A DNA stretch of 64,000 nt from NCBI GenBank assembly GCA_023061495.1, contig GCA_023061495.1_3643.1; one strand, written 5' to 3'. Below the pieces are notes generated by a model. It saw nothing but the letters and a program-made list of their open reading frames with translations. It was not told the DNA's origin and ran no database searches. The DNA comes from Escherichia coli (GTDB taxonomy: Bacteria; Pseudomonadota; Gammaproteobacteria; Enterobacterales; Enterobacteriaceae). The position numbers and the translations under genes were made by a program. Shown in pieces: positions 1 to 11,446 of this stretch; the first letter of the stretch is position 1; each line of letters opens with the position of its first letter.

Positions 1-197
1 TTAGCCTTGGCAATAACTTCTTTTCCAGAATTGTCAAAAATGAACGCCATAACTTCCTGATGATCATTTTCAACTTTTACACTAACACGTGCATAGTTGG
101 CAGATGGGTGCAAACGCTCCAGCTTAGACATTTTGTGGGAAATGAAAGACACCATACCTTCAGTGATTTCTACGTTGCCAGTGATTTCAATTTGCAT
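1..197 (-). CDS. hypothetical protein, 3' end runs off the window (MQIEITGNVEITEG...)
   Basis: ATG at 197, frame open to window edge; promoter-like TTGACA-N17-TATTAT just upstream at 250-278 on minus strand; not in ORF track because no stop inside window. Confidence 0.35.
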   Translation of the reverse strand, partial: MQIEITGNVEITEGMVSFISHKMSKLERLHPSANYARVSVKVENDHQEVMAFIFDNSGKEVIAKA

Positions 198-249
198 AAC
201 GTGCTCCTTTTAAGGAAGAGAGAATAACAACCATCTCTCTTTGAAAACA

Positions 250-278
250 ATAATACTATAGCTGAAGCGTTGTGTCAA
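250..278 (-). promoter_or_regulatory. sigma70-like promoter (TTGACA-N17-TATTAT)
   Basis: minus-strand -35 TTGACA at 278..273, 17-nt spacer, -10 TATTAT at 255..250. Confidence 0.45.
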
Positions 279-284
279 CAGTTT

Positions 285-575
285 TTACAGCTTATTATCG
301 ATAGTATCTAAAATATCTACAGCAAGATCTGCCATTTTTCTAACATACTCTGCAAACTCAACAGGATCCTTGATCAAAGAATTCACAGGGTCGTACCCTA
401 GAGCGTTCAAAATGGCTGCAGCATCTACAACCTTCTCATCATTTGCGGAGATCTCACCGTCAAACTTGTGGGTCCATTTTGAGTCAATCTTGGCATGGCA
501 GAATTGGTCCATGCTTATTACACCATCTTTTTTAAACGATTCGGTGTTATCAGTATCCAAAACTAAATCCATCAT
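285..575 (-). CDS. hypothetical early protein
   Basis: 96-aa ORF co-oriented with the minus-strand early block; no recognisable motif. Confidence 0.45.
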   Translation of the reverse strand: MMDLVLDTDNTESFKKDGVISMDQFCHAKIDSKWTHKFDGEISANDEKVVDAAAILNALGYDPVNSLIKDPVEFAEYVRKMADLAVDILDTIDNKL

Positions 576-592
576 AGTGGCACCTCACTGTT

Positions 593-991
593 TCAGTCTA
601 GCTTTTCTTCAACAACCCCGTAGCTCGGGGCAGAGTCAAGAGCTTTTTGGTTTAAAAGTGGTGTAGCAGAATCTGCAAACGGTGTCCAAGTTTTTGTTCT
701 GGCATTCCAGTAATGCTTCACTCTGGAATCTGGATGCACTATAACAAAAACTTTTTCACTTGTCAACACATTAATTTCTTCCACACCCTTGCTGACAATT
801 TCTCCGTCATAGCCCCCAGTCTGGTACCCTTCGTACCAGGTTCTTGCATAGGCATAGCCAGCCTGCCAGCATGCAGCCTCCTCCGAGGTGGAGACTACGT
901 AGAAGTCTTTCTCAAATTCTGGGATACGTCCTTGCTTTACGCTCCAAGCTCCGCGAATTTTCATTGTTACTTTGAAAAGCTTGTTCTTCAT
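593..991 (-). CDS. hypothetical early protein
   Basis: 132-aa ORF, co-oriented, tight spacing to neighbours. Confidence 0.5.
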   Translation of the reverse strand: MKNKLFKVTMKIRGAWSVKQGRIPEFEKDFYVVSTSEEAACWQAGYAYARTWYEGYQTGGYDGEIVSKGVEEINVLTSEKVFVIVHPDSRVKHYWNARTKTWTPFADSATPLLNQKALDSAPSYGVVEEKLD

Positions 992-992
992 A

Positions 993-1247
993 CTACCGCT
1001 CTACAATCTCTACGTCTGTTCCTACACCGAAGGCATAGTAATGTTCTTCCCCAAAGTAATACTTGGGGACACCAGCTTTGATCAGGTCTAACCCGCGAAT
1101 AAATACCACACCGTGTGATACAGTGGAATGCTTCTGACGCACAGGATCGTTGTCAGGCAACCATTCAAAGTACACCGCAGGTACAACCTTCCCTTTAAGA
1201 AAGGATTGCCCCAAGTAGACGTTAGAATCAAGAATTTTGACCTTCAT
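993..1247 (-). CDS. hypothetical protein, MKVKxLDSN paralog family member 1
   Basis: 84 aa; shares N-terminal MKVK[IVF]LDSN.Y.GQ...GKV and C-terminal G.DVEIVE with ORFs 1228..1461 and 4851..5084. Confidence 0.55.
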   Translation of the reverse strand: MKVKILDSNVYLGQSFLKGKVVPAVYFEWLPDNDPVRQKHSTVSHGVVFIRGLDLIKAGVPKYYFGEEHYYAFGVGTDVEIVER

Positions 1248-1461
1248 GATCGTCCTCCACTATCTCCACATCCTCCCCTAGGGCAAAGTTGTAGGCCCAC
1301 TGACTGTCAAAGCATTCCTGAGACGCGCCAGCGGCAATAAGATCTGCCCCTTTTATTTTTAAAAGGTCAGGATAATCTTCGTTAGGGATAGCGGTAAACA
1401 CTTTTCCAACTAAAGGCTCTTGACCAATATAGAAGTTTGAATCTAAAACTTTCACTTTCAT
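1228..1461 (-). CDS. hypothetical protein, MKVKxLDSN paralog family member 2
   Basis: 77 aa; paralog of 993..1247 (MKVKVLDSNFYIGQ...EDVEIVE); overlaps upstream neighbour by a few codons. Confidence 0.55.
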   Translation of the reverse strand: MKVKVLDSNFYIGQEPLVGKVFTAIPNEDYPDLLKIKGADLIAAGASQECFDSQWAYNFALGEDVEIVEDDHEGQNS

Positions 1462-1745
1462 CAGAGGTCTCCATCGGGCGGTTGTGGAACGTAAACACTG
1501 TTACGAATCTCGTCAGCAGTGTAGTAACAAGTTTTTCCCTCTCTGTCCCTGGCAGCAATGTATTCAGCTATACCAATAAGTGCCATAGCCTTGGTGGCGT
1601 ATCTCTTAAGCTCGTTAGCTCCCCAGCAAAATCTCTGCCAAAACGGTATGAAACCGAATAGGTACACCTTCTGTTTCACTATCCAATAAGTTCCTTTACA
1701 GATCACTTTAAACTCTGCAGCACTGTTACTGACACCATTGCTCAT
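1461..1745 (-). CDS. hypothetical early protein
   Basis: 94-aa ORF, start/stop overlap with neighbours. Confidence 0.45.
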   Translation of the reverse strand: MSNGVSNSAAEFKVICKGTYWIVKQKVYLFGFIPFWQRFCWGANELKRYATKAMALIGIAEYIAARDREGKTCYYTADEIRNSVYVPQPPDGDL

Positions 1746-1757
1746 TATCTTCTCCTT

Positions 1758-2042
1758 TTATTTTTCTGGGTTTGGCAGATATTGCACATTGGCGGGAGGA
1801 ACACCGGATAGCTCCCAAACAACCATAGTGCTGTACCCTGGCACACTTCTAACATTTAAAAGAGTAGGAGCACCAACACATTTAAACTTCCTTTTCCCGA
1901 ATCCGTTCTCCATCATAACCCAGTATCCGGTATCCTGATCACCTGGAATTTGTGTTCCATCATCGTCCACCCAGCGGACGGTCCATTTCGATACAGCAAC
2001 GGCTCGGTATTTAAACTTTTTAAACCACTCAAACAGTTTCAT
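1758..2042 (-). CDS. hypothetical early protein
   Basis: 94-aa ORF co-oriented. Confidence 0.45.
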   Translation of the reverse strand: MKLFEWFKKFKYRAVAVSKWTVRWVDDDGTQIPGDQDTGYWVMMENGFGKRKFKCVGAPTLLNVRSVPGYSTMVVWELSGVPPANVQYLPNPEK

Positions 2043-2137
2043 AATTCAGCCTCGCATAGCCATAATAACTATAAACAGACAAATAATGAATCCGAATGCC
2101 ACGCCACCCATAAACGTTAATATTGATGCGACCATAA

Positions 2138-2323
2138 TCAATCATCCTCGTTTGGCAGCTCTTCCATTTTGACATACCGGAAAGTGTTGCCGTAATAGTT
2201 GATCCATGACATCAACTCGTTTTCTTGCTCTTCCTCTGGGATTGACTCTCGGATGCTGACAAGTTTTAAGAAAATCCAATCACAATCTACACCCATCCTA
2301 CCGGACAGGCAATAGTGCTTCAT
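2138..2323 (-). CDS. hypothetical small protein
   Basis: 61-aa ORF co-oriented. Confidence 0.35.
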   Translation of the reverse strand: MKHYCLSGRMGVDCDWIFLKLVSIRESIPEEEQENELMSWINYYGNTFRYVKMEELPNEDD

Positions 2324-2341
2324 AGAACCCTCCCGACTGGT

Positions 2342-2536
2342 TTAAAATATTGCTTCTTCCATTGCACCTGAGAGCAACAAAGAGGTAATATGGCTAACAT
2401 TCATCTCAGACTCTACTTCCTCCCCTTTGAAAGGTTCGCGGCAGAATAGAACTGTTTCAGGACTTTTACTTCGAACAATATAATACAAATCATTCAAGGT
2501 GTTGTAGTAATAAGTGTTAAAACGTAAGTTTTTCAT
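2342..2536 (-). CDS. hypothetical small protein
   Basis: 64-aa ORF, stop overlaps start of 2533..2820 neighbour. Confidence 0.35.
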   Translation of the reverse strand: MKNLRFNTYYYNTLNDLYYIVRSKSPETVLFCREPFKGEEVESEMNVSHITSLLLSGAMEEAIF

Positions 2537-2820
2537 TTTCTAGTCCCCTTCTTAGATTTTTGTGCAGAAACGCTTTCTGCAATACGAGACAGGCGTTCTT
2601 CTGAAGCTTTACCTACCCCAGGTTTCTTGAGCGGGTTATCTTTATGACCGCAATCCAATTGGATGCTAGATACCTCCCCAACCTTGTAAGTCAATTCTAA
2701 CAAAAGGTTGTCGTCCTTGTCAAATGTTTTTACGATAAATTTTTTATCGTCCTCCTGAACTTCATACCTAGTACCTGCAGTATACAGCATGGTGCCATCA
2801 GTGTAGGATATCCAAATCAT
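2533..2820 (-). CDS. hypothetical early protein
   Basis: 95-aa ORF with ATGA-type overlap to both neighbours. Confidence 0.45.
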   Translation of the reverse strand: MIWISYTDGTMLYTAGTRYEVQEDDKKFIVKTFDKDDNLLLELTYKVGEVSSIQLDCGHKDNPLKKPGVGKASEERLSRIAESVSAQKSKKGTRK

Positions 2821-3164
2821 TGCACCTCCTTCTGCTGCAACAGCATTAACTCTTTGTTGGAAATCTTTACTGCTGTCTTTATTGTTCCATCTTCACGGAA
2901 CCACGACCAGAATTCTACAGTGTCGCCACTATCAAGCAAGGCATGACCGTGGTAAAAATCCTTGTCCTTAGACAGTTTCTCATCTATATCTGCATCGACA
3001 CATTCGTGATCCATAGCATTTTGCCTGAATGCATCGGTTATGCCAAGGCATGCCTTGCTCTCAAGACTGGTATATCCGATATCTTTTAATTCAGTTTCCC
3101 AAGTCCAGTAGCCTACAAAAGCCACAACAGCTGCCCACATCAATATCGACTTAATCTTTGGCAT
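2817..3164 (-). CDS. hypothetical membrane-anchored protein
   Basis: N-terminal hydrophobic segment (ILMWAAVVAFVGYWTW) then soluble domain. Confidence 0.5.
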   Translation of the reverse strand: MPKIKSILMWAAVVAFVGYWTWETELKDIGYTSLESKACLGITDAFRQNAMDHECVDADIDEKLSKDKDFYHGHALLDSGDTVEFWSWFREDGTIKTAVKISNKELMLLQQKEVQ

Positions 3165-3224
3165 TCTCTCTACCTCTTTCTTAGTTTATTTAATTATGGC
3201 ACATCCTTTGTGCCTTGTTGCACA

Positions 3225-3686
3225 CTACTTGAACAACAGTTCAAGATAGTGCAAAATTAACAGAAGTTGAATTACGCCTAGCACAACGGCGAGTATATTA
3301 ATCTTAGAATCAAAAAACTTCTTAACTTTTACCCAAAAAGGCTCCTTAATGTCCTTCACGATCCTATTTATAGATGATTTCATATCTCTGATTACCATCC
3401 TAAACATTAGAGACGGATCTTCCTTCTCTGTAACAGAATCGAAAACATACTCTCTTCGATCACAAGGACCTCCAGATCTGCGTATTAACCTCTCCACAGA
3501 GACCTCGTACGACACACCTGTAACGTAATCATCTATGACAAGTAGTGACGGGTCTTTATCATCCAAAGGTATCAGAGTTATCTTTCCAGATTTTGTTAAA
3601 ATTTCTCCTTTTTCAAGCAAGGTGTACCAATGCTCTCTACCAAGATTGTTGAGGCACGTTTTTACATATTTAACAAACATCGTCAC
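3225..3686 (-). CDS. hypothetical protein (C-terminal hydrophobic tail)
   Basis: 153-aa ORF; C-terminus ILAVVLGVIQLLLILHYL looks like a membrane anchor. Confidence 0.5.
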   Translation of the reverse strand: MTMFVKYVKTCLNNLGREHWYTLLEKGEILTKSGKITLIPLDDKDPSLLVIDDYVTGVSYEVSVERLIRRSGGPCDRREYVFDSVTEKEDPSLMFRMVIRDMKSSINRIVKDIKEPFWVKVKKFFDSKINILAVVLGVIQLLLILHYLELLFK

Positions 3687-3886
3687 CCCTCATCGCACGT
3701 CTGATATAACCATTCTATAAAATCTTGATACCACTCTCCCTCTGAACGCTCCGTAGGCCAATAATCTTCCCCATCTCTTGCATTAAAATCCGAGTATTCA
3801 ACTTTCCACTCCTTTACCAGCTCGTGGAGAAGGTTTTCAGCCTGTTCTAAGGATTTATTTTTTGTCATCACTGTCCCCTTTTTCAA
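3683..3886 (-). CDS. hypothetical small protein
   Basis: 67 aa, start overlaps stop of upstream small ORF. Confidence 0.4.
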   Translation of the reverse strand: MKKGTVMTKNKSLEQAENLLHELVKEWKVEYSDFNARDGEDYWPTERSEGEWYQDFIEWLYQTCDEG

Positions 3887-3974
3887 GATAATTATACATC
3901 AGTGCCGCGCCACCCAAAATGGCTACCAGCAGTAATACTCCAGAGAGCATTTCAATAAACATGGCTTGAAACAT
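3855..3974 (-). CDS. putative 39-aa single-pass membrane peptide (MFQAMFIEMLSGVLLLVAILGGAALMYNYLEKGDSDDKK)
   Basis: found by hand, below ORF-track size cutoff; hydrophobic core; TAATG overlap with upstream ORF. Confidence 0.3.
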   Translation of the reverse strand: MFQAMFIEMLSGVLLLVAILGGAALMYNYLEKGDSDDKK

Positions 3975-4105
3975 TAGAAGGCCCCCTCTAATTTCACGCA
4001 CCATTTTAAATACACACTCTTTTCCCATGAAGATGCTGAACTAAGTTCTGCATAGAATGCAATCTCCCTAAGAATAGTATAAACAGTTTCAGGCACTGTT
4101 ACCAT
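3974..4105 (-). CDS. putative 43-aa peptide
   Basis: found by hand; stop overlaps downstream ATG as TAATG, start overlaps 3' end of 4089..4325. Confidence 0.25.
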   Translation of the reverse strand: MVTVPETVYTILREIAFYAELSSASSWEKSVYLKWCVKLEGAF

Positions 4106-4325
4106 TCTTATCTACCTCCTTCATTTTCCTGACGGTTTTACAGTGATCTACCAAGCACATAACAACAATGAAGAGAACGACAGGCCAAAAAGGTGCGGCA
4201 GTGATTATAGTTATAAAGTCGTCAAACTTAATTTTTCTACAAGATATGATGCAAAGAGTTGCTAAAACAACCATTGTCAGAAAGGTCAATGCGCAATACC
4301 AAACCAGCACAGTGTCTATAGTCAT
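4089..4325 (-). CDS. hypothetical membrane protein
   Basis: two hydrophobic stretches (LVWYCALTFLTMVVLATLCII; ITAAPFWPVVLFIVVMCLV). Confidence 0.45.
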   Translation of the reverse strand: MTIDTVLVWYCALTFLTMVVLATLCIISCRKIKFDDFITIITAAPFWPVVLFIVVMCLVDHCKTVRKMKEVDKNGNSA

Positions 4326-4326
4326 A

Positions 4327-4854
4327 CTACATCTCCTGGTTCAAACTGTTAAGAAAGGATACCCTGTCTTCGCTATTTTTCTCTGTGATATACCCTCCAA
4401 ACATGGAAAGAATCACATGCTTCAAGTAATCTTTTTCTGGATCGCTTAGATGATTGCGTGGCTTTATTTCCACATCATGATAGTCGTACAATCCACAATC
4501 ATGATACCCCCAGTATCGACACACCTCAATACTGATCGGGAGTTTTTTGTCACACGAAACTTTCCAACGGGTTACGTTGTTACCAGGGGATAAATCCTCG
4601 CCCACCTTCACGAATGACAGATCGTAACTCATAAACTTTTCGTACAGTTTAAGCACAAAACTCTCGACCTGTGGAGAAACACCAGCCACTAGCTGAGCGT
4701 ATCTATACTTACTTTCGATAATTTTTCGGCGCTTTGCTGTAAGGTTTATTGCAGCAATTTGACTTTCTGAGTATCTCCAAGGCTTATATATAAATGCTTT
4801 CGGGTCTTTGTCGCCATAAAAATCTTTCCAATCAACTAGCAGCATACCTGTCAC
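4327..4854 (-). CDS. hypothetical early protein
   Basis: 175-aa ORF co-oriented. Confidence 0.5.
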   Translation of the reverse strand: MTGMLLVDWKDFYGDKDPKAFIYKPWRYSESQIAAINLTAKRRKIIESKYRYAQLVAGVSPQVESFVLKLYEKFMSYDLSFVKVGEDLSPGNNVTRWKVSCDKKLPISIEVCRYWGYHDCGLYDYHDVEIKPRNHLSDPEKDYLKHVILSMFGGYITEKNSEDRVSFLNSLNQEM

Positions 4855-5084
4855 TCCTCCACAACTTCAAGGCCTTTGCCGCCTCGTTCTGGTAGATTAC
4901 TTAAAGACAGGTAATACGTATAGTAAGGAGAGATCCTGCCAGACTCTGCACCTGCAGATAGTAAATCTTTTCCCTTAACCATGACAACATTATCGTTTGC
5001 AGATAGTCGTTTTGCTTCCACAATTTTACCAACGCAGTCAACCAAGGAAGGGTACCCTAAATCTGTAAGAAATTTAACTTTCAT
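4851..5084 (-). CDS. hypothetical protein, MKVKxLDSN paralog family member 3
   Basis: 77 aa, MKVKFLTDLGYP...GKIV...KGKDLLSAGA...LEVVEE; divergent paralog of 993..1247 and 1228..1461. Confidence 0.5.
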   Translation of the reverse strand: MKVKFLTDLGYPSLVDCVGKIVEAKRLSANDNVVMVKGKDLLSAGAESGRISPYYTYYLSLSNLPERGGKGLEVVEE

Positions 5085-5123
5085 GCTACCTCCTACTTCT
5101 ACCGTCCCTGGTAAGATAAATTA

Positions 5124-5522
5124 TTACTGAACAGAGCGCGGAGCTGGGAAGGATAACTCTTCTAAAGAGAAGATTTCATTTCCCACAATCCATGTTGCCG
5201 GATCATCTGGGTTGACCGGATAGATAATCATCACCTCGTCCGTGTTACATACCCGCTTTTTACCTGTGGAGTCATCAGCAACCAGCATACGCGGTTCTTC
5301 AGAAATGCACAGGTAGCCTCCTCGGCCCACTGTTCCTTCCACAGGGTCTTGTCCTTTGATCACGATGATTATCTTCTCCCCTGAGGCGATATTACCTTGC
5401 ACACTCACCGTTTGACCAACCTTGGATGTGCCAATCTTAGTGACTTCGAACATTACATCCCGAATTACCGTTGCATAATCGCCAGACACTTTCTTACCTT
5501 CTTTAGTGATCTCAATCTTCAT
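5124..5522 (-). CDS. hypothetical early protein
   Basis: 132-aa ORF. Confidence 0.5.
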   Translation of the reverse strand: MKIEITKEGKKVSGDYATVIRDVMFEVTKIGTSKVGQTVSVQGNIASGEKIIIVIKGQDPVEGTVGRGGYLCISEEPRMLVADDSTGKKRVCNTDEVMIIYPVNPDDPATWIVGNEIFSLEELSFPAPRSVQ

Positions 5523-5758
5523 ACACTGTGCTCCTTAAATGAATCTATGTAATCAATTAAATCCCAAGCATCCCTATGACCTGTCAGAGGGTATACTTCT
5601 CCAAGAGGGATCATAGCAGTAAGTCTATCAAAAACCCAATCCGGACGCAACATCTTATGGTGATATTCCCACTCACCTTCTACAGACTTTTTCTGAGTGA
5701 TCAGAATCTCTGTGTAGTGTTTTGCCTGTCTTGAGTAAATTGAAAATGACTTATACAT
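5519..5758 (-). CDS. hypothetical early protein
   Basis: 79-aa ORF, start overlaps neighbour. Confidence 0.45.
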   Translation of the reverse strand: MYKSFSIYSRQAKHYTEILITQKKSVEGEWEYHHKMLRPDWVFDRLTAMIPLGEVYPLTGHRDAWDLIDYIDSFKEHSV

Positions 5759-5795
5759 AGATGACCCTCCCTCTTGTTGAAAACAAAATACACTA

Positions 5796-6080
5796 CTACC
5801 AAGTCACTGTCAAGTAGGCAACCGTGTTATTTTTCTCCGGAGAGATGCCAACAACATCCACCTGCAGACCTCCTGCCCTCAAATCTCCAACGATGTGTGG
5901 AAAGTAGTCTGAGAGGTGTGATGGGAGATTTATCGAAAATCCACATCCCAGAAAGCCTGCTAACGCTTTATTTTGTATCTCCCCTACAATCGCATCATAA
6001 ATAGAGTTAAGCTCGTCAGGAAGCGTTACAGGACGTTTTAGAGCTAACTGGTGCAACTTGTCCTTAGCACTCATTTTCAT
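5796..6080 (-). CDS. hypothetical protein
   Basis: start moved to ATG at 6080 (MKMSAKDK...), which forms an ATGA overlap with the methyltransferase stop; ORF track begins further upstream at 6149. Confidence 0.45.
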   Translation of the reverse strand: MKMSAKDKLHQLALKRPVTLPDELNSIYDAIVGEIQNKALAGFLGCGFSINLPSHLSDYFPHIVGDLRAGGLQVDVVGISPEKNNTVAYLTVTW

Positions 6081-6610
6081 TTCAAGTCTGCCTCTGGTGG
6101 TGCCAACCACATAAATGGCGGCAAGTCTAGACGGTTTTTCTTGTCCCATACAAAATATGCATATGCCTGCCCATCCGTTCTACCATTGGATTGGAATGAC
6201 GGACGCTTAGATATTGTGATCACGGTGGTAGGTGCATTATCAAGCCACCATTCAAATCTGGCCTTGCTTTCCAGAAAATTAAGACGCAAAAGCATAATAA
6301 CTACGTCAGCATCTTTCAACGCCTTGTCTACAAACTCACGAGCCAGGCTGTACGGTGGGTTGGTGATAATACAGTCAACATGGTTGTATTCTGTATTCAG
6401 ATAGTCAACACCTTCTTGGATTTCTCCCCATGCAGATCCTAACGGCATACGGGAGTAGAACACACCTGAGGCACTATTCCTGCAAGGCTCTAAGTAAGTC
6501 CAGTCTTCTGGGAACGGAATAAGGTCATACAGCCCTTCTGCACACCACTCCGGTGTCACATACTCATCGTAAGCGTTACGTTGTTCATCAGGTTTTCTAG
6601 CACAAGTCAT
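6077..6610 (-). CDS. DNA N6-adenine methyltransferase (Dam-like)
   Basis: catalytic motif IV NPPY in IITNPPYSLAREFV; size typical of small phage Dam-like enzymes. Confidence 0.7.
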   Translation of the reverse strand: MTCARKPDEQRNAYDEYVTPEWCAEGLYDLIPFPEDWTYLEPCRNSASGVFYSRMPLGSAWGEIQEGVDYLNTEYNHVDCIITNPPYSLAREFVDKALKDADVVIMLLRLNFLESKARFEWWLDNAPTTVITISKRPSFQSNGRTDGQAYAYFVWDKKNRLDLPPFMWLAPPEADLK

Positions 6611-6621
6611 GCAAATCTCCA

Positions 6622-6650
6622 GATCATAAAAGCCCTCCGAAGAGGGCTTT
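6622..6650 (-). terminator. rho-independent terminator hairpin (AGCCCTC-CGAA-GAGGGCT) after protease gene
   Basis: perfect 7-bp stem, CGAA tetraloop, U-rich run on minus strand. Confidence 0.5.
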
Positions 6651-6661
6651 AGAATTAATGT

Positions 6662-7711
6662 TTAAGCTTCTTCGACAATTCCTGCGCCCAGGATTTTTTC
6701 ATTGAGCTCTTTTGCTGTTTTAATAATATTGTCCACCAGACGCTTACGGGTCTTATCTTTCACCTGAACTTCTTCGCCGCCGTTCAGGGTGGTTTTCAAT
6801 TGGGACAAAATGTCCTGAAGCTCTACCACAGAGAATCGCTGCAGATCTTCCGAGGTAATCTCCCCCAGTGCAATCTTAACGGTCTCACCACTCTCCATCT
6901 GCAGATTCAGGAACACAGTGTGAACATCACCTTTCATACCATTTTCTTTTGCAGACTCAACAGCATGAACCAGCTCGTCCAAAGATGTGCATTGGTGAAT
7001 CTCTGGCAGGCCTGCTTCGCCTAGCACACCTTCTTCATCACTTTTTGCCAAAAGCTTTTTCGGTTTCTGTCCATTCTGAATGCGCTGAATGTTTTCATCG
7101 TCCAGAATGATAGCACCAGTTCTAGATGCCAGCTCTTCTCCATCTAACCACACTTCACCGCCAGCTGTGATGGATGCGATCTCATCTTCTGTTAACACCC
7201 CACCGTAGTATTTTTCGATCAGGCGTTCAAAACGTTTCTTCCAGTAGTTGATCTGGGTATTCATGTTCACACCGTTACCATAGGTGCCACCTTGATAGTA
7301 GTGGAACATAAATTCTGTGTCCGGAGCCACAGTTCGTTCTTTGCAACCCAGCCATAAGATTGTTCCTGCCGAGCAGCACATCCCTTCAGCGTGTACAACA
7401 ACGCTTGCCTGAGACTCGCGGAATGCCTGCAAATACGCCATAGCAATGTGAACGCAACCACCAGGACTGTTAATGATTACACGGATACTTTCTTCTGGCT
7501 GAGCCATACGGATCGTCTGTAGACGAGACATGTGATCTTGTAGGTCGTCCAAATCGTCGATATAAAGAACGTGGTCAACAACAGGTGTTGGGTAGCTGTA
7601 TGTTTCCATAATACCACCAGGCATACCGAACATTTTGTTACTCATAGGTTCGAAACCGTTCTGTTTTTCTTTCATGCCGTGTACCATGGTGCTGCGAGGT
7701 GTTAAATTCAT
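6662..7711 (-). CDS. ClpP-like serine protease with C-terminal extension
   Basis: ClpP-like motifs INSPGGCVHIAMA, GMCCSAG (Ser) and MFHYYQGG (His); about 150 extra C-terminal residues. Confidence 0.7.
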   Translation of the reverse strand: MNLTPRSTMVHGMKEKQNGFEPMSNKMFGMPGGIMETYSYPTPVVDHVLYIDDLDDLQDHMSRLQTIRMAQPEESIRVIINSPGGCVHIAMAYLQAFRESQASVVVHAEGMCCSAGTILWLGCKERTVAPDTEFMFHYYQGGTYGNGVNMNTQINYWKKRFERLIEKYYGGVLTEDEIASITAGGEVWLDGEELASRTGAIILDDENIQRIQNGQKPKKLLAKSDEEGVLGEAGLPEIHQCTSLDELVHAVESAKENGMKGDVHTVFLNLQMESGETVKIALGEITSEDLQRFSVVELQDILSQLKTTLNGGEEVQVKDKTRKRLVDNIIKTAKELNEKILGAGIVEEA

Positions 7712-10186: not shown

Positions 10187-11446
10187 TCAGCAACCACAAC
10201 TTCCGTAGTGCTTAACTCGCTCGATAACTTCCGCTTGCTTACCTTTATTGTAAGGACGGGAGTTAGGGCTGGAAAGGTATCCAGACACACGTCGAATTAC
10301 ACTGATCGTTCCCTCTTCATGGTTTCCACACCCTGGGCATACAAAGCCTTTAGCTGTTGCACTGAACTCACCAGAGAAACCGCACTTGAGACATTTATCT
10401 ACAGGTTGGTTAATACCAAAATACATAATGTGTTTATATCCGAAATCAACAAGAGCTTCCAAAGCATCTAAGTTGTTTTTCAGATTTGGTGTCTCTATGT
10501 ACCCAATGTTGCCACCAGAGGAGATCATAGCAAAACCTTCCTCATACTTCCACTTATCAAAAGGCGAGCTATTGATCCATACTGGCTGATGGAAACTGTT
10601 GGTGAGGTATTCATGCTCGTGCTTCAACACTTCTGGGTATTCACGATCCAGACAGGTTGCAGCTTTATAGCATAAACTCTCAGAAGGTGTGCCGTACAAG
10701 CTAAATGCTAGTCCACTTTCCTTCTTGTATCGCTCACAAGCATCTTTCATGTGCTGAAGGATTCCAAGAGCTAAAGCCTTGTCACCCTCTCTGCCCAAAA
10801 TCTGACAGGTTTCATACACACCAATATACCCAATACTGATGGAAGCGTACCCGTCATAGAAGAGTTTATCGATACTCTCTTCAGGATCCAGGCGAGCAAG
10901 AGCTCCTTCACACCACATGATAGGGTTCTGCCCTGCCTTTGTTCCTTTTAGACGGTTAACCCTTACAAGGTGAGCCTCGTATGCAAGATCCAAGTATTCG
11001 TCAAGAACTGCAAAGAAATCAATACCTTCCGTCTTAGCTTTTGCCGCAATCATTGGTAGGTTAAGGCTAACAACACCCAAGTTGAATCTGCCAAGGTATT
11101 TTTCATCACCCTCCGGTGTAACATATTTGCCAAGGAACGACCTACATCCCATGCTTGTTACTTTGCCGTCTGTTGAACCTGTCACTTTACGATTTAGCGG
11201 AACAGAAACAAAGTCAGGATAAATCCGCTCTGCAGAGCATTCTAGGGCTAATCGTTTCAAATCGTAGTTAGGATCCCCAGGGTTCATGTTGACACCCTCC
11301 TCTAAGAAGAACAGCACTTTAGGGAACACAGGTGTGATCCGTTCTTCACCAAGACCCATTTTGTGAACTTTCAAGTAGTTTTTGGTAATCATTCTACCAA
11401 AGACCGAAGTATCCAGCCCTAAACTTAATGTGATGAATGGAGTCTG
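10187..11446 (-). CDS. nrdD: anaerobic ribonucleoside-triphosphate reductase, exon 2
   Basis: glycyl-radical motif RRVSGYL near C-terminus and Zn ribbon CLKCGF...CPGCG; 5' boundary inferred from intron splice logic (ORF track extends to a GTG at 11470). Confidence 0.75.
   Translation of the reverse strand, partial: QTPFITLSLGLDTSVFGRMITKNYLKVHKMGLGEERITPVFPKVLFFLEEGVNMNPGDPNYDLKRLALECSAERIYPDFVSVPLNRKVTGSTDGKVTSMGCRSFLGKYVTPEGDEKYLGRFNLGVVSLNLPMIAAKAKTEGIDFFAVLDEYLDLAYEAHLVRVNRLKGTKAGQNPIMWCEGALARLDPEESIDKLFYDGYASISIGYIGVYETCQILGREGDKALALGILQHMKDACERYKKESGLAFSLYGTPSESLCYKAATCLDREYPEVLKHEHEYLTNSFHQPVWINSSPFDKWKYEEGFAMISSGGNIGYIETPNLKNNLDALEALVDFGYKHIMYFGINQPVDKCLKCGFSGEFSATAKGFVCPGCGNHEEGTISVIRRVSGYLSSPNSRPYNKGKQAEVIERVKHYGSCGC

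Follow-up and report, generated by a model that had tools for sequence, protein, structure and literature searches.

The genes nrdC.1 of T4 (anti-Septu) and bas54_0140 of Bas54 (anti-DS-28), both from large virulent phages, are short, tightly packed and non-essential, and become essential only under particular conditions (bioRxiv 10.1101/2025.11.20.689424). Nip of the Bacillus phage Phi3T counters host defence by binding to the SpbK TIR NADase, which it inhibits (PMC11984713). With respect to structure, the SH3-like small beta-barrels used for comparison here were the KOW domains of Spt5/NusG (4zn3, 5ohq), PsaE, the C-terminal domain of retroviral integrase and eukaryotic SH3 domains. The three proteins described in this study are members of PHROG 5009, with no difference in kind. 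PHROGs 13367, 8603, 15322, 20482, 7345, 13920 and 13661 are linked to it and are likewise phage families with no function assigned in the catalogue, which gives neither function, fold nor copy number and divides the five genomic paralogs among three PHROGs. All catalogues and records that we checked label the family as of unknown function or as hypothetical protein. In the literature searched, nothing was found on the paralogs of rV5, on PHROG 5009 or on a characterised member, and none of the papers covered names PHROG 5009. Vequintaviruses, the phages concerned, belong to the most frequently isolated E. coli phages of broad host range and are candidates for therapy, with functions still unassigned for most of their genes.

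The window, i.e. the whole stretch of 64,000 nucleotides analysed, belongs to an rV5-like E. coli phage and contains the three predicted open reading frames at 993..1247 (A, 84 aa), 1228..1461 (B, 77 aa) and 4851..5084 (C, 77 aa), all on the minus strand. As predicted, A and B are adjacent and overlap, by 20 nt (1228-1247), and the GGAGGA ribosome-binding site of A is located within the 3' end of B. The start of B shares one nucleotide with the stop of the upstream open reading frame at 1461-1745. C is preceded by a strong ribosome-binding site, AGGAGG. In most relatives B comprises 74 aa; the longer form found here results from a TAA to CAA change of the stop codon, brought about by a substitution that is synonymous in A, where it falls in codon 3 of the overlapping reading frame. 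The translations of all three genes contain the sequence motifs originally reported, namely MKVK[IVF]L, GK[VI], [KR]GxDL[IL]xAG and a (D/L)VE[IV]VE tail. B represents the minimal form of the domain and is the only strongly acidic protein of the three (pI 4.1); a uniformly acidic, DNA-mimic-like character was considered for the family and dropped, as strong acidity is confined to B. The three genes flank the gene for a phage-encoded ribosome hibernation factor.

With regard to transcription, the window contains 11 near-consensus sigma-70 sites, compared to 1.6 +/- 1.2 in shuffled sequences, and 8 of the 11 are co-oriented with the gene arm of A, B and C. The nearest upstream near-consensus site (TTGACA-18-TAGAAT with TG; 2694..2723, minus strand) is a predicted promoter that could drive an operon containing B and A. 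Other sigma-70 promoters are predicted at 8142-8114 and 9533-9504. The proposed placement of the genes in an early region is consistent with the eight co-oriented predicted promoters, and from these sequence features A, B and C are probably transcribed by the host RNA polymerase from sigma-70-type promoters.

Pairwise BLASTP yielded 43% identity between A and B over 83 columns (E 2e-18) and 30% identity between B and C across the full length (E 6e-8), while A and C shared a local match of 25 residues only (E 2e-4). All three proteins matched the PHROG 5009 HMM: A with E 4.2e-27 (residues 1-84 against profile positions 1-70 of 74), B with E 3.7e-38 and C with E 6.8e-35 (both against positions 1-74 of 74). 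The similarity is therefore significant and extends beyond the N-terminus, and the outcome that would have spoken against the original prediction, an insignificant similarity limited to the first residues, did not occur on alignment. A, B and C are full-length paralogs. HMM searches against all six-frame open reading frames revealed no further copy in the 64-kb window. The description as a family of three holds within the window and is incomplete beyond it, since two distant members, FV3_00139 and FV3_00140 (D and E; PHROGs 13920 and 13661, linked to PHROG 5009 by profile comparison), are located approximately 0.6-1.2 kb past window position 1 in FV3, the close relative from which these positions were inferred. 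The PHROG 5009 superfamily is thus present in five copies per Vequintavirus genome, of which A, B and C are three.

The superfamily is spread over many phages of Gram-negative bacteria. Among 1.84 billion proteins, 74 cluster representatives were recovered as relatives at E ≤ 1e-3, and all 61 relatives that were aligned matched PHROG 5009; a locus search of IMG/VR with protein B returned one locus. Three of 102 stored proteins from the representative search did not match the refined family HMM. The giant proteins P0036, P0038 and P0084 were at first considered as members; we assume that they are these three and that they are repeat-motif artefacts. Members occur in Krischvirus, phage Merlin, phages of Aeromonas, Proteus and Vibrio, and lambdoid prophages; most belong to virulent phages. 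In the lambdoid phages mEp515 and mEp554, the member is found among small genes between those for the Holliday-junction resolvase and lysis, and E. coli prophages carry one as well (cluster P0028, 309 member sequences), with neighbours that are all annotated as 'hypothetical protein'. Natural single-chain fusions of two to three domains occur (P0035, P0040, P0062, P0086), and the domain is also found as an N-terminal module joined to other domains, e.g. DUF3310.

The fold had been described as not recognisable by eye, which is fair; structure prediction nevertheless suggests an SH3-like small barrel. The AF2 model of B (pLDDT 88.4) has strands at residues 2-5, 21-23, 33-37, 56-61 and 65-69 and a helix at 38-43. 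The model of A (pLDDT 88.4) shows the same strand order, but 14 residues are inserted into the loop that leads from strand 2 to strand 3, and the insertion region 27-46 is of lower confidence; in C, 7 additional residues precede the final strand. As modelled, the domain of about 70 residues forms a minimal SH3-like barrel of five strands and includes a short helix (GxDLIxAGA) that is conserved. Foldseek searches against the PDB yielded no significant match (TM < 0.5), all structural scores were under the usual significance levels, and searches of PDB sequences with family profiles returned noise only. No Pfam family was matched by A, B or C at E ≤ 1, SH3 family profiles included, and nothing notable was obtained in NCBIfam.

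To what extent the copies diversify was addressed by dN/dS analysis (NG86) across 15 Vequintavirus loci. In all 15 loci, A, B and C are intact and syntenic. At a dS of 0.4-0.6, dN/dS was 0.16 for A, 0.11 for B and 0.11 for C, with neighbouring genes at 0.03-0.26; A occurs in two allele classes among relatives that are approximately 77% identical. Stable orthologs at all loci together with dN/dS values of 0.11-0.16 indicate that the duplications are old and that each copy is under purifying selection. The designation as diversifying paralogs is thus not supported. Loss does occur: phage Bas59 is a natural deletion mutant that lacks B and A and has kept C. The deletion joins orf4327 to orf593 at a site of microhomology and did not arise by recombination between paralogs. 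In a metagenomic Vequintavirus contig, a single B/A hybrid gene replaces B and A.

Directly downstream of A lies orf593 (593..991, minus strand), encoding a protein of 132 aa with a dN/dS of 0.06. This protein and FV3_00141 (FV3_141) are paralogs (BLASTP, E 3e-11) and share a match to PHROG 7379, which by tblastn is restricted to Vequintavirus. FV3_00141 comes after FV3_00139 and FV3_00140, the same order as in B-A-orf593. Judged by similarity and gene order, B-A-orf593 and 139-140-141 appear to form a duplicated three-gene cassette with orf593 as the candidate third member, and we infer that orf593 belongs to one functional unit with B and A. Another adjacent pair of family copies is gp226-gp225 of KFS-EC. 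C stands alone and adjoins an unrelated gene; the neighbouring orf4327 was considered as a possible third version of the cassette's 132-aa partner and rejected, as it displayed no similarity.

Published transposon data (HIDEN-SEQ) are available for phage Bas54 (MaxBurger, MZ501093), for which we confirmed the orthologs of A, B, C and orf593 by sequence. The orthologs of A, B and C were classified as 'Non-essential' on K-12 at a TA-site saturation of 0.88-0.93 and showed no conditional phenotype on one uropathogenic isolate, CFE311 (bioRxiv 10.1101/2025.11.20.689424). A, B and C are individually dispensable for laboratory lytic growth. On CFE311, insertions were depleted in the two distant paralogs, bas54_0152 (log2FC -7.2) and bas54_0151 (-6.2), and in their 131-aa neighbour bas54_0150 (-6.8); depletion was moderate for bas54_0157, the ortholog of orf593 (-2.14; adjusted p 0 in all cases; bioRxiv 10.1101/2025.11.20.689424). 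The bas54_0157 phenotype is not reproduced by insertions in B and A, and widespread polar effects are unlikely according to the authors (bioRxiv 10.1101/2025.11.20.689424). Of the features of an accessory gene, dispensability applies to A, B and C, while conditional requirement applies to D, E and the cassette partners only. For A, B and C themselves, a role in host takeover or anti-defence, as originally suggested, is putative; its support is indirect and comes from the conditionally required D/E cassette and orf593.

The best explanation in our opinion, held tentatively, is that the family forms a putative host-strain-specific accessory binding module in which the small barrel binds a strain-restricted host protein. 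Each copy would represent a small protein-binding module, and the bound host protein, present in some strains only, would be neutralised or redirected; it could, for example, belong to a defence system. The scaffold would be the conserved barrel, and specificity would reside in the tail and in the variable loops that connect strands 1-2, 2-3 and 3-4. The copies would probably be paired (B with A, D with E), and the pairs possibly joined by the 131-132-aa protein encoded beside each. Paired action is suggested because copies adjoin (B-A, D-E, gp226-gp225) and natural fusions of two to three domains exist, and modularity because the domain is fused as an N-terminal module to e.g. DUF3310. An accessory nature is proposed because the Bas54 orthologs are non-essential, Bas59 lacks B and A and a B/A hybrid occurs in the metagenome; a host-specific role of the family is proposed because bas54_0152, bas54_0151, bas54_0150 and bas54_0157 are depleted on the uropathogenic isolate. 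A wider reading, which we consider unlikely, is that the whole PHROG 5009 superfamily constitutes a widespread, modular counter-defence or host-adaptation system of hetero-pairs, assembled from a minimal SH3-like domain; in some phages both partners of a pair would be parts of a single polypeptide. In Vequintavirus, the pairs would act with a 131-132-aa partner, and the duplicated cassettes would target distinct strain-specific host factors. D-E-FV3_141 would then neutralise a factor of CFE311 and B-A-orf593 a related, distinct one. No PADLOC-DB family was matched at E ≤ 1 by A, B, C, orf593, D, E or FV3_141, and in one anti-defence survey based on machine learning the supplements do not list the family.

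It appears rather doubtful that the barrels are instead phage-internal helpers that bind, regulate or chaperone phage proteins such as the adjacent PHROG 7379 protein, the host-specific phenotype then arising from the partner. The order of two small genes followed by one for 131-132 aa does occur twice, tight packing and overlap suggest translational coupling, and within B-A-orf593 the phenotype is limited to the 132-aa gene. However, PHROG 7379 is found only in Vequintavirus, whereas the barrel family is distributed far more widely and occurs without it, and C is located alone beside an unrelated gene. Quite unlikely, in our view, are takeover factors for translation or transcription mimicking KOW or ribosomal-protein barrels (NusG/Spt5 KOW, L24, eL14) that would bind to the ribosome or RNA polymerase and act together with the hibernation factor encoded by the phage. 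KOW (PF00467) was matched neither by the 61 relatives at E ≤ 0.01 nor, like any other Pfam family, by A, B or C at E ≤ 1. The structural scores are below usual significance and any SH3-like barrel retrieves KOW domains; furthermore, relatives in other phages have no linked HPF gene. Clinical isolates differ mainly in their prophage content, and a family member is present in lambdoid mEp515 and mEp554 and in the E. coli prophages of P0028 (309 sequences), as would be expected if the proteins acted in inter-phage competition or superinfection exclusion and not on the host's own defences. We regard this as improbable: the proteins have no membrane or signal feature and are predicted soluble barrels, no PADLOC match was obtained and most members reside in virulent phages. 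That the genes are non-functional duplicates or spurious open reading frames, as their individual dispensability and loss in some isolates might suggest, is effectively refuted by purifying selection (intact in 15/15 loci, dN/dS of about 0.1 despite dS of 0.4-0.6); good ribosome-binding sites, confident folded models and retention of the family across distant phages also speak against it.

Taken together, a 'dark matter' family now has a predicted fold, a copy number of five, a cassette context and a link to conditional essentiality. If its members are strain-specific host-factor binders, they would account for part of the host-range variation among Vequintaviruses and add a new minimal scaffold to phage counter-measures. 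In comparison with known SH3-like barrels, the family has no sequence-profile match in Pfam, KOW and SH3 included, and is set apart by the conserved helix GxDLIxAGA after strand 3 and a long loop between strands 1 and 2. Nip differs in its size of 279 aa, its HU-like dimerisation domain and its origin in a temperate phage of a Gram-positive host; its predicted architecture of two SH3-like domains parallels the paired and tandem copies described here by analogy only (PMC11984713). Unlike nrdC.1 and bas54_0140, the family members have no matched defence system and A, B and C have so far no conditional phenotype. Like them, the family genes are short, tightly packed and dispensable on K-12, and a clinical isolate is known on which the phage conditionally requires D and E.

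The three small window genes A (993-1247, 84 aa), B (1228-1461, 77 aa) and C (4851-5084, 77 aa), all on the minus strand, were present with the motifs described for them. In pairwise BLASTP, A and B shared 43% identity (E 2e-18) and B and C 30% over the full length (E 6e-8), while A and C gave a local match only (E 2e-4). All three matched PHROG 5009 ('unknown function') over the full length of its profile (A, E 4e-27; B, E 4e-38; C, E 7e-35), indicating that the similarity is significant and spans the whole protein rather than the first residues. As had been noted, two copies are adjacent and overlapping: B and A share 20 nt, and the GGAGGA ribosome-binding site of A sits within B. The start of B and the stop of its upstream ORF have one base in common, and the ribosome-binding site of C is AGGAGG. 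B has 74 aa in most relatives, where its overlap with A is 11 nt; in the window and in phage SYGMH1, a synonymous change in codon 3 of A turns the stop codon TAA of B into CAA, extending B by three residues. HMM searches against all six-frame ORFs revealed no fourth copy within the window.

Searches of Pfam, NCBIfam, PADLOC and PDB sequences gave no match. AlphaFold2, run on B with a 17-sequence family alignment, returned a confident model with a mean pLDDT of 88.4 and a pTM of 0.76, comprising strands at residues 2-5, 21-23, 33-37, 56-61 and 65-69 and a short helix (38-43) that bears the most conserved motif, GxDLIxAGA. The model of A (pLDDT 88.4) has the same order of elements, with the 14-residue insertion looping out, at lower confidence, between strands 2 and 3. 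We read this as a predicted SH3-like fold that could not be placed in any characterised superfamily.

An HMM of 53 short family members was run against the remainder of the genome of the related phage FV3. Two additional members were found approximately 0.6-1.2 kb past window position 1, downstream of the hibernation-factor (HPF) gene: D (FV3_00139, 87 aa, HMM E 3e-6, PHROG 13920) and E (FV3_00140, 110 aa, HMM E 4e-6, PHROG 13661). Profile-profile comparison supported the membership of both (D, probability 91%, E 1e-6; E, probability 78%, E 1.8e-5). The first 36 kb of FV3 contained no family member. The original observation of a family of three holds for the window, and two more members lie just outside it in FV3. 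E is followed by FV3_00141 (131 aa) and A by orf593 (593-991, minus strand), and these two genes are paralogs (BLASTP E 3e-11; both PHROG 7379). B-A-orf593 and D-E-FV3_00141 (FV3 99363-100358; L016:1364-2359; approximately 0.6-1.6 kb beyond window position 1) are thus two copies of one three-gene cassette, one on each side of the HPF gene. C is solitary, and its neighbour orf4327 (4327-4854) is unrelated to orf593. From close relatives, we infer that D, E and FV3_00141 also occur in the window's own genome, outside the window. The orf593 product has 132 aa, was found by tblastn in Vequintavirus only, is highly conserved (dN/dS 0.06) and had no match in Pfam or the PDB.

Saturating transposon sequencing ('HIDEN-SEQ') of the related phage Bas54 (MaxBurger, MZ501093) has been reported in a 2025 preprint that does not discuss the family genes (bioRxiv 10.1101/2025.11.20.689424). 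We established orthology by sequence: bas54_0158 corresponds to A (79% identity), bas54_0159 to B (90%), bas54_0166 to C (94%), bas54_0157 to orf593 (98%), bas54_0152 to D (97%), bas54_0151 to E (97%) and bas54_0150 to FV3_00141 (98.5%). On E. coli K-12, A, B and C were classified as 'Non-essential', insertions having hit 14/15, 16/18 and 15/17 TA sites, respectively (bioRxiv 10.1101/2025.11.20.689424). In the resampling comparison of K-12 with a uropathogenic isolate, A (log2FC -0.30), B (+0.98) and C (+0.72) all had an adjusted p of 1, and D (-7.16), E (-6.17), bas54_0150 (-6.77) and bas54_0157 (-2.14) all had an adjusted p of 0 (bioRxiv 10.1101/2025.11.20.689424). The D-E-bas54_0150 cassette is strongly conditionally required on this isolate, and bas54_0157 is conditionally depleted. 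Insertions in B and A do not reproduce the effect of those in bas54_0157. The D and E insertions may be polar on bas54_0150; the authors argue against widespread polar effects (bioRxiv 10.1101/2025.11.20.689424). The isolate is evidently CFE311, since sample 311 is named in the command line and the same table shows depletion of bas54_0063, which is reported to act against DS-28 (bioRxiv 10.1101/2025.11.20.689424). In Extended Data Table 8, that command line stands in the sheet 'resampling_K-12_vs_CFE303', and the next sheet seemingly repeats identical numbers (bioRxiv 10.1101/2025.11.20.689424).

A, B and C are real, conserved and dispensable. The proposed anti-defence or host-takeover role is a reasonable hypothesis that rests on the paralogs, not on A, B or C themselves, and it can now be tested. 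The preferred reading, which we hold only tentatively, is that the copies are small binding modules, each aimed at a host factor that differs between strains. Specificity would come from the variable loops and tail, in which paralog differences and insertions fall, and the conserved barrel would provide the scaffold. The adjacency of copies and natural tandem fusions suggest that they may tend to act as pairs. A rival is that the proteins bind the ribosome or RNA polymerase in a KOW-like manner. They might also be purely phage-internal helpers of the 131-132-aa partner that recurs in both cassettes. Inter-phage exclusion is a further alternative. That the genes are non-functional is effectively excluded, A, B and C being under purifying selection and intact and syntenic in 15/15 loci.

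Those loci are the window and 14 Vequintavirus loci, from which orthologs of 17 genes were taken. By Nei-Gojobori, dN/dS was 0.16 for A (dS 0.58), 0.11 for B (dS 0.40) and 0.11 for C (dS 0.40), compared to 0.03-0.26 for neighbouring genes; D (0.10), E (0.09) and FV3_00141 (0.06) are likewise under purifying selection. With values of 0.11-0.16, A, B and C are old duplicates, each under purifying selection; the original label 'diversifying' is unsupported, with no sign of ongoing diversification across the 15 loci. Two allele classes of A, approximately 77% identical, occur, as in several neighbouring genes, reflecting the mosaic character of the gene arm. Phage Bas59 (EduardKellenberger, 131.5 kb) has lost approximately 4 kb across a microhomology junction: B, A and most of orf593 are gone, the remaining 3' end of orf593 is fused to orf4327, and C, D and E are kept. 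In a 133-kb metagenomic contig, one 70-aa B/A hybrid, with its breakpoint within the conserved DLIxAGA motif, replaces both genes. This natural variation agrees with dispensability.

Window 1-7000, which holds densely packed short genes on the minus strand, shares 97.4% identity with Escherichia phage vB_EcoM_SYGMH1 and 95.5% with FV3, where nearly all counterparts are labelled 'hypothetical protein'. It matched 121 phage records, essentially all Vequintavirus (rV5-like myoviruses, ~136 kb). Eighteen GenBank MG0656xx 'Campylobacter phage' records are ~90% identical to this region, and their C. jejuni host label looks doubtful. Window ~600-4850 is a hotspot of indels. Missing from Bas54 are ~1.9 kb, with the orthologs of ORFs 1758-2042 through 3225-3686; for the last of these genes (3225-3686, minus strand), the label differs between records: 'virion structural protein', 'putative structural protein' or 'HNH homing endonuclease'. 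Five minus-strand genes (1461-1745, 1758-2042, 2342-2536, 4089-4325 and 4327-4854) occur in two sharply different allele classes, with alignment scores against the window allele of 52-75% of self-score in Vequintaviruses otherwise 90-97% identical, a sign that short segments are exchanged in mosaic fashion. The window holds 11 near-consensus sigma-70 promoters (at most 1 mismatch in 12), compared with 1.6 +/- 1.2 in shuffles. Of the 11, eight are minus-strand sites (250-28364) co-oriented with the genes, including a perfect TTGACA-18-TATAAT at 9533-9504, and three are plus-strand sites (33234, 36364 and 51692). These sites would fit transcription of the arm by unmodified host polymerase and say nothing of timing. 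The GC skew flips sign near ~32000, where the minus-strand gene arm gives way to the plus-strand arm in divergent transcription.

The original observation was sound yet incomplete. This five-copy family with a predicted SH3-like fold, already catalogued as PHROG 5009, belongs to a broad phage superfamily of uncharacterised function. Among 1.84 billion cluster representatives, a profile search returned 74 proteins at E<=1e-3, most of 63-87 aa, with the common consensus MKVKLLNDGGYxG...VGKVVxA...IxGxDLIxAGA...YxF...EVEVVEE; 61/61 aligned relatives matched PHROG 5009 and 35/61 also PHROG 13367. With distant members as query, tblastn placed the family in Krischvirus (T4-like), Citrobacter phage Merlin, Aeromonas phage MQM1, Proteus phage Isfahan, Vibrio phage VpV262, Dhillonvirus LL5 and others. 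The lambdoid phages mEp515 and mEp554, as well as E. coli prophages, also carry members, in a stretch of small unknown genes that separates the Holliday-junction resolvase from the lysis genes. Eight longer relatives (106-253 aa) carry the domain N-terminally, followed in P0080 by a DUF3310 domain, and four (P0035, P0040, P0062 and P0086) hold two or three domain copies in one chain. The T4-like Krischvirus KFS-EC encodes three to five copies in 3.5 kb (L022, 7403-10825), among them the neighbouring genes gp226 and gp225; an unannotated ORF (10496-10825, E 0.002) is one of the candidates. Thus, multiple and adjacent copies, as in KFS-EC and the multi-domain chains, are a trait of the whole family beyond this phage.
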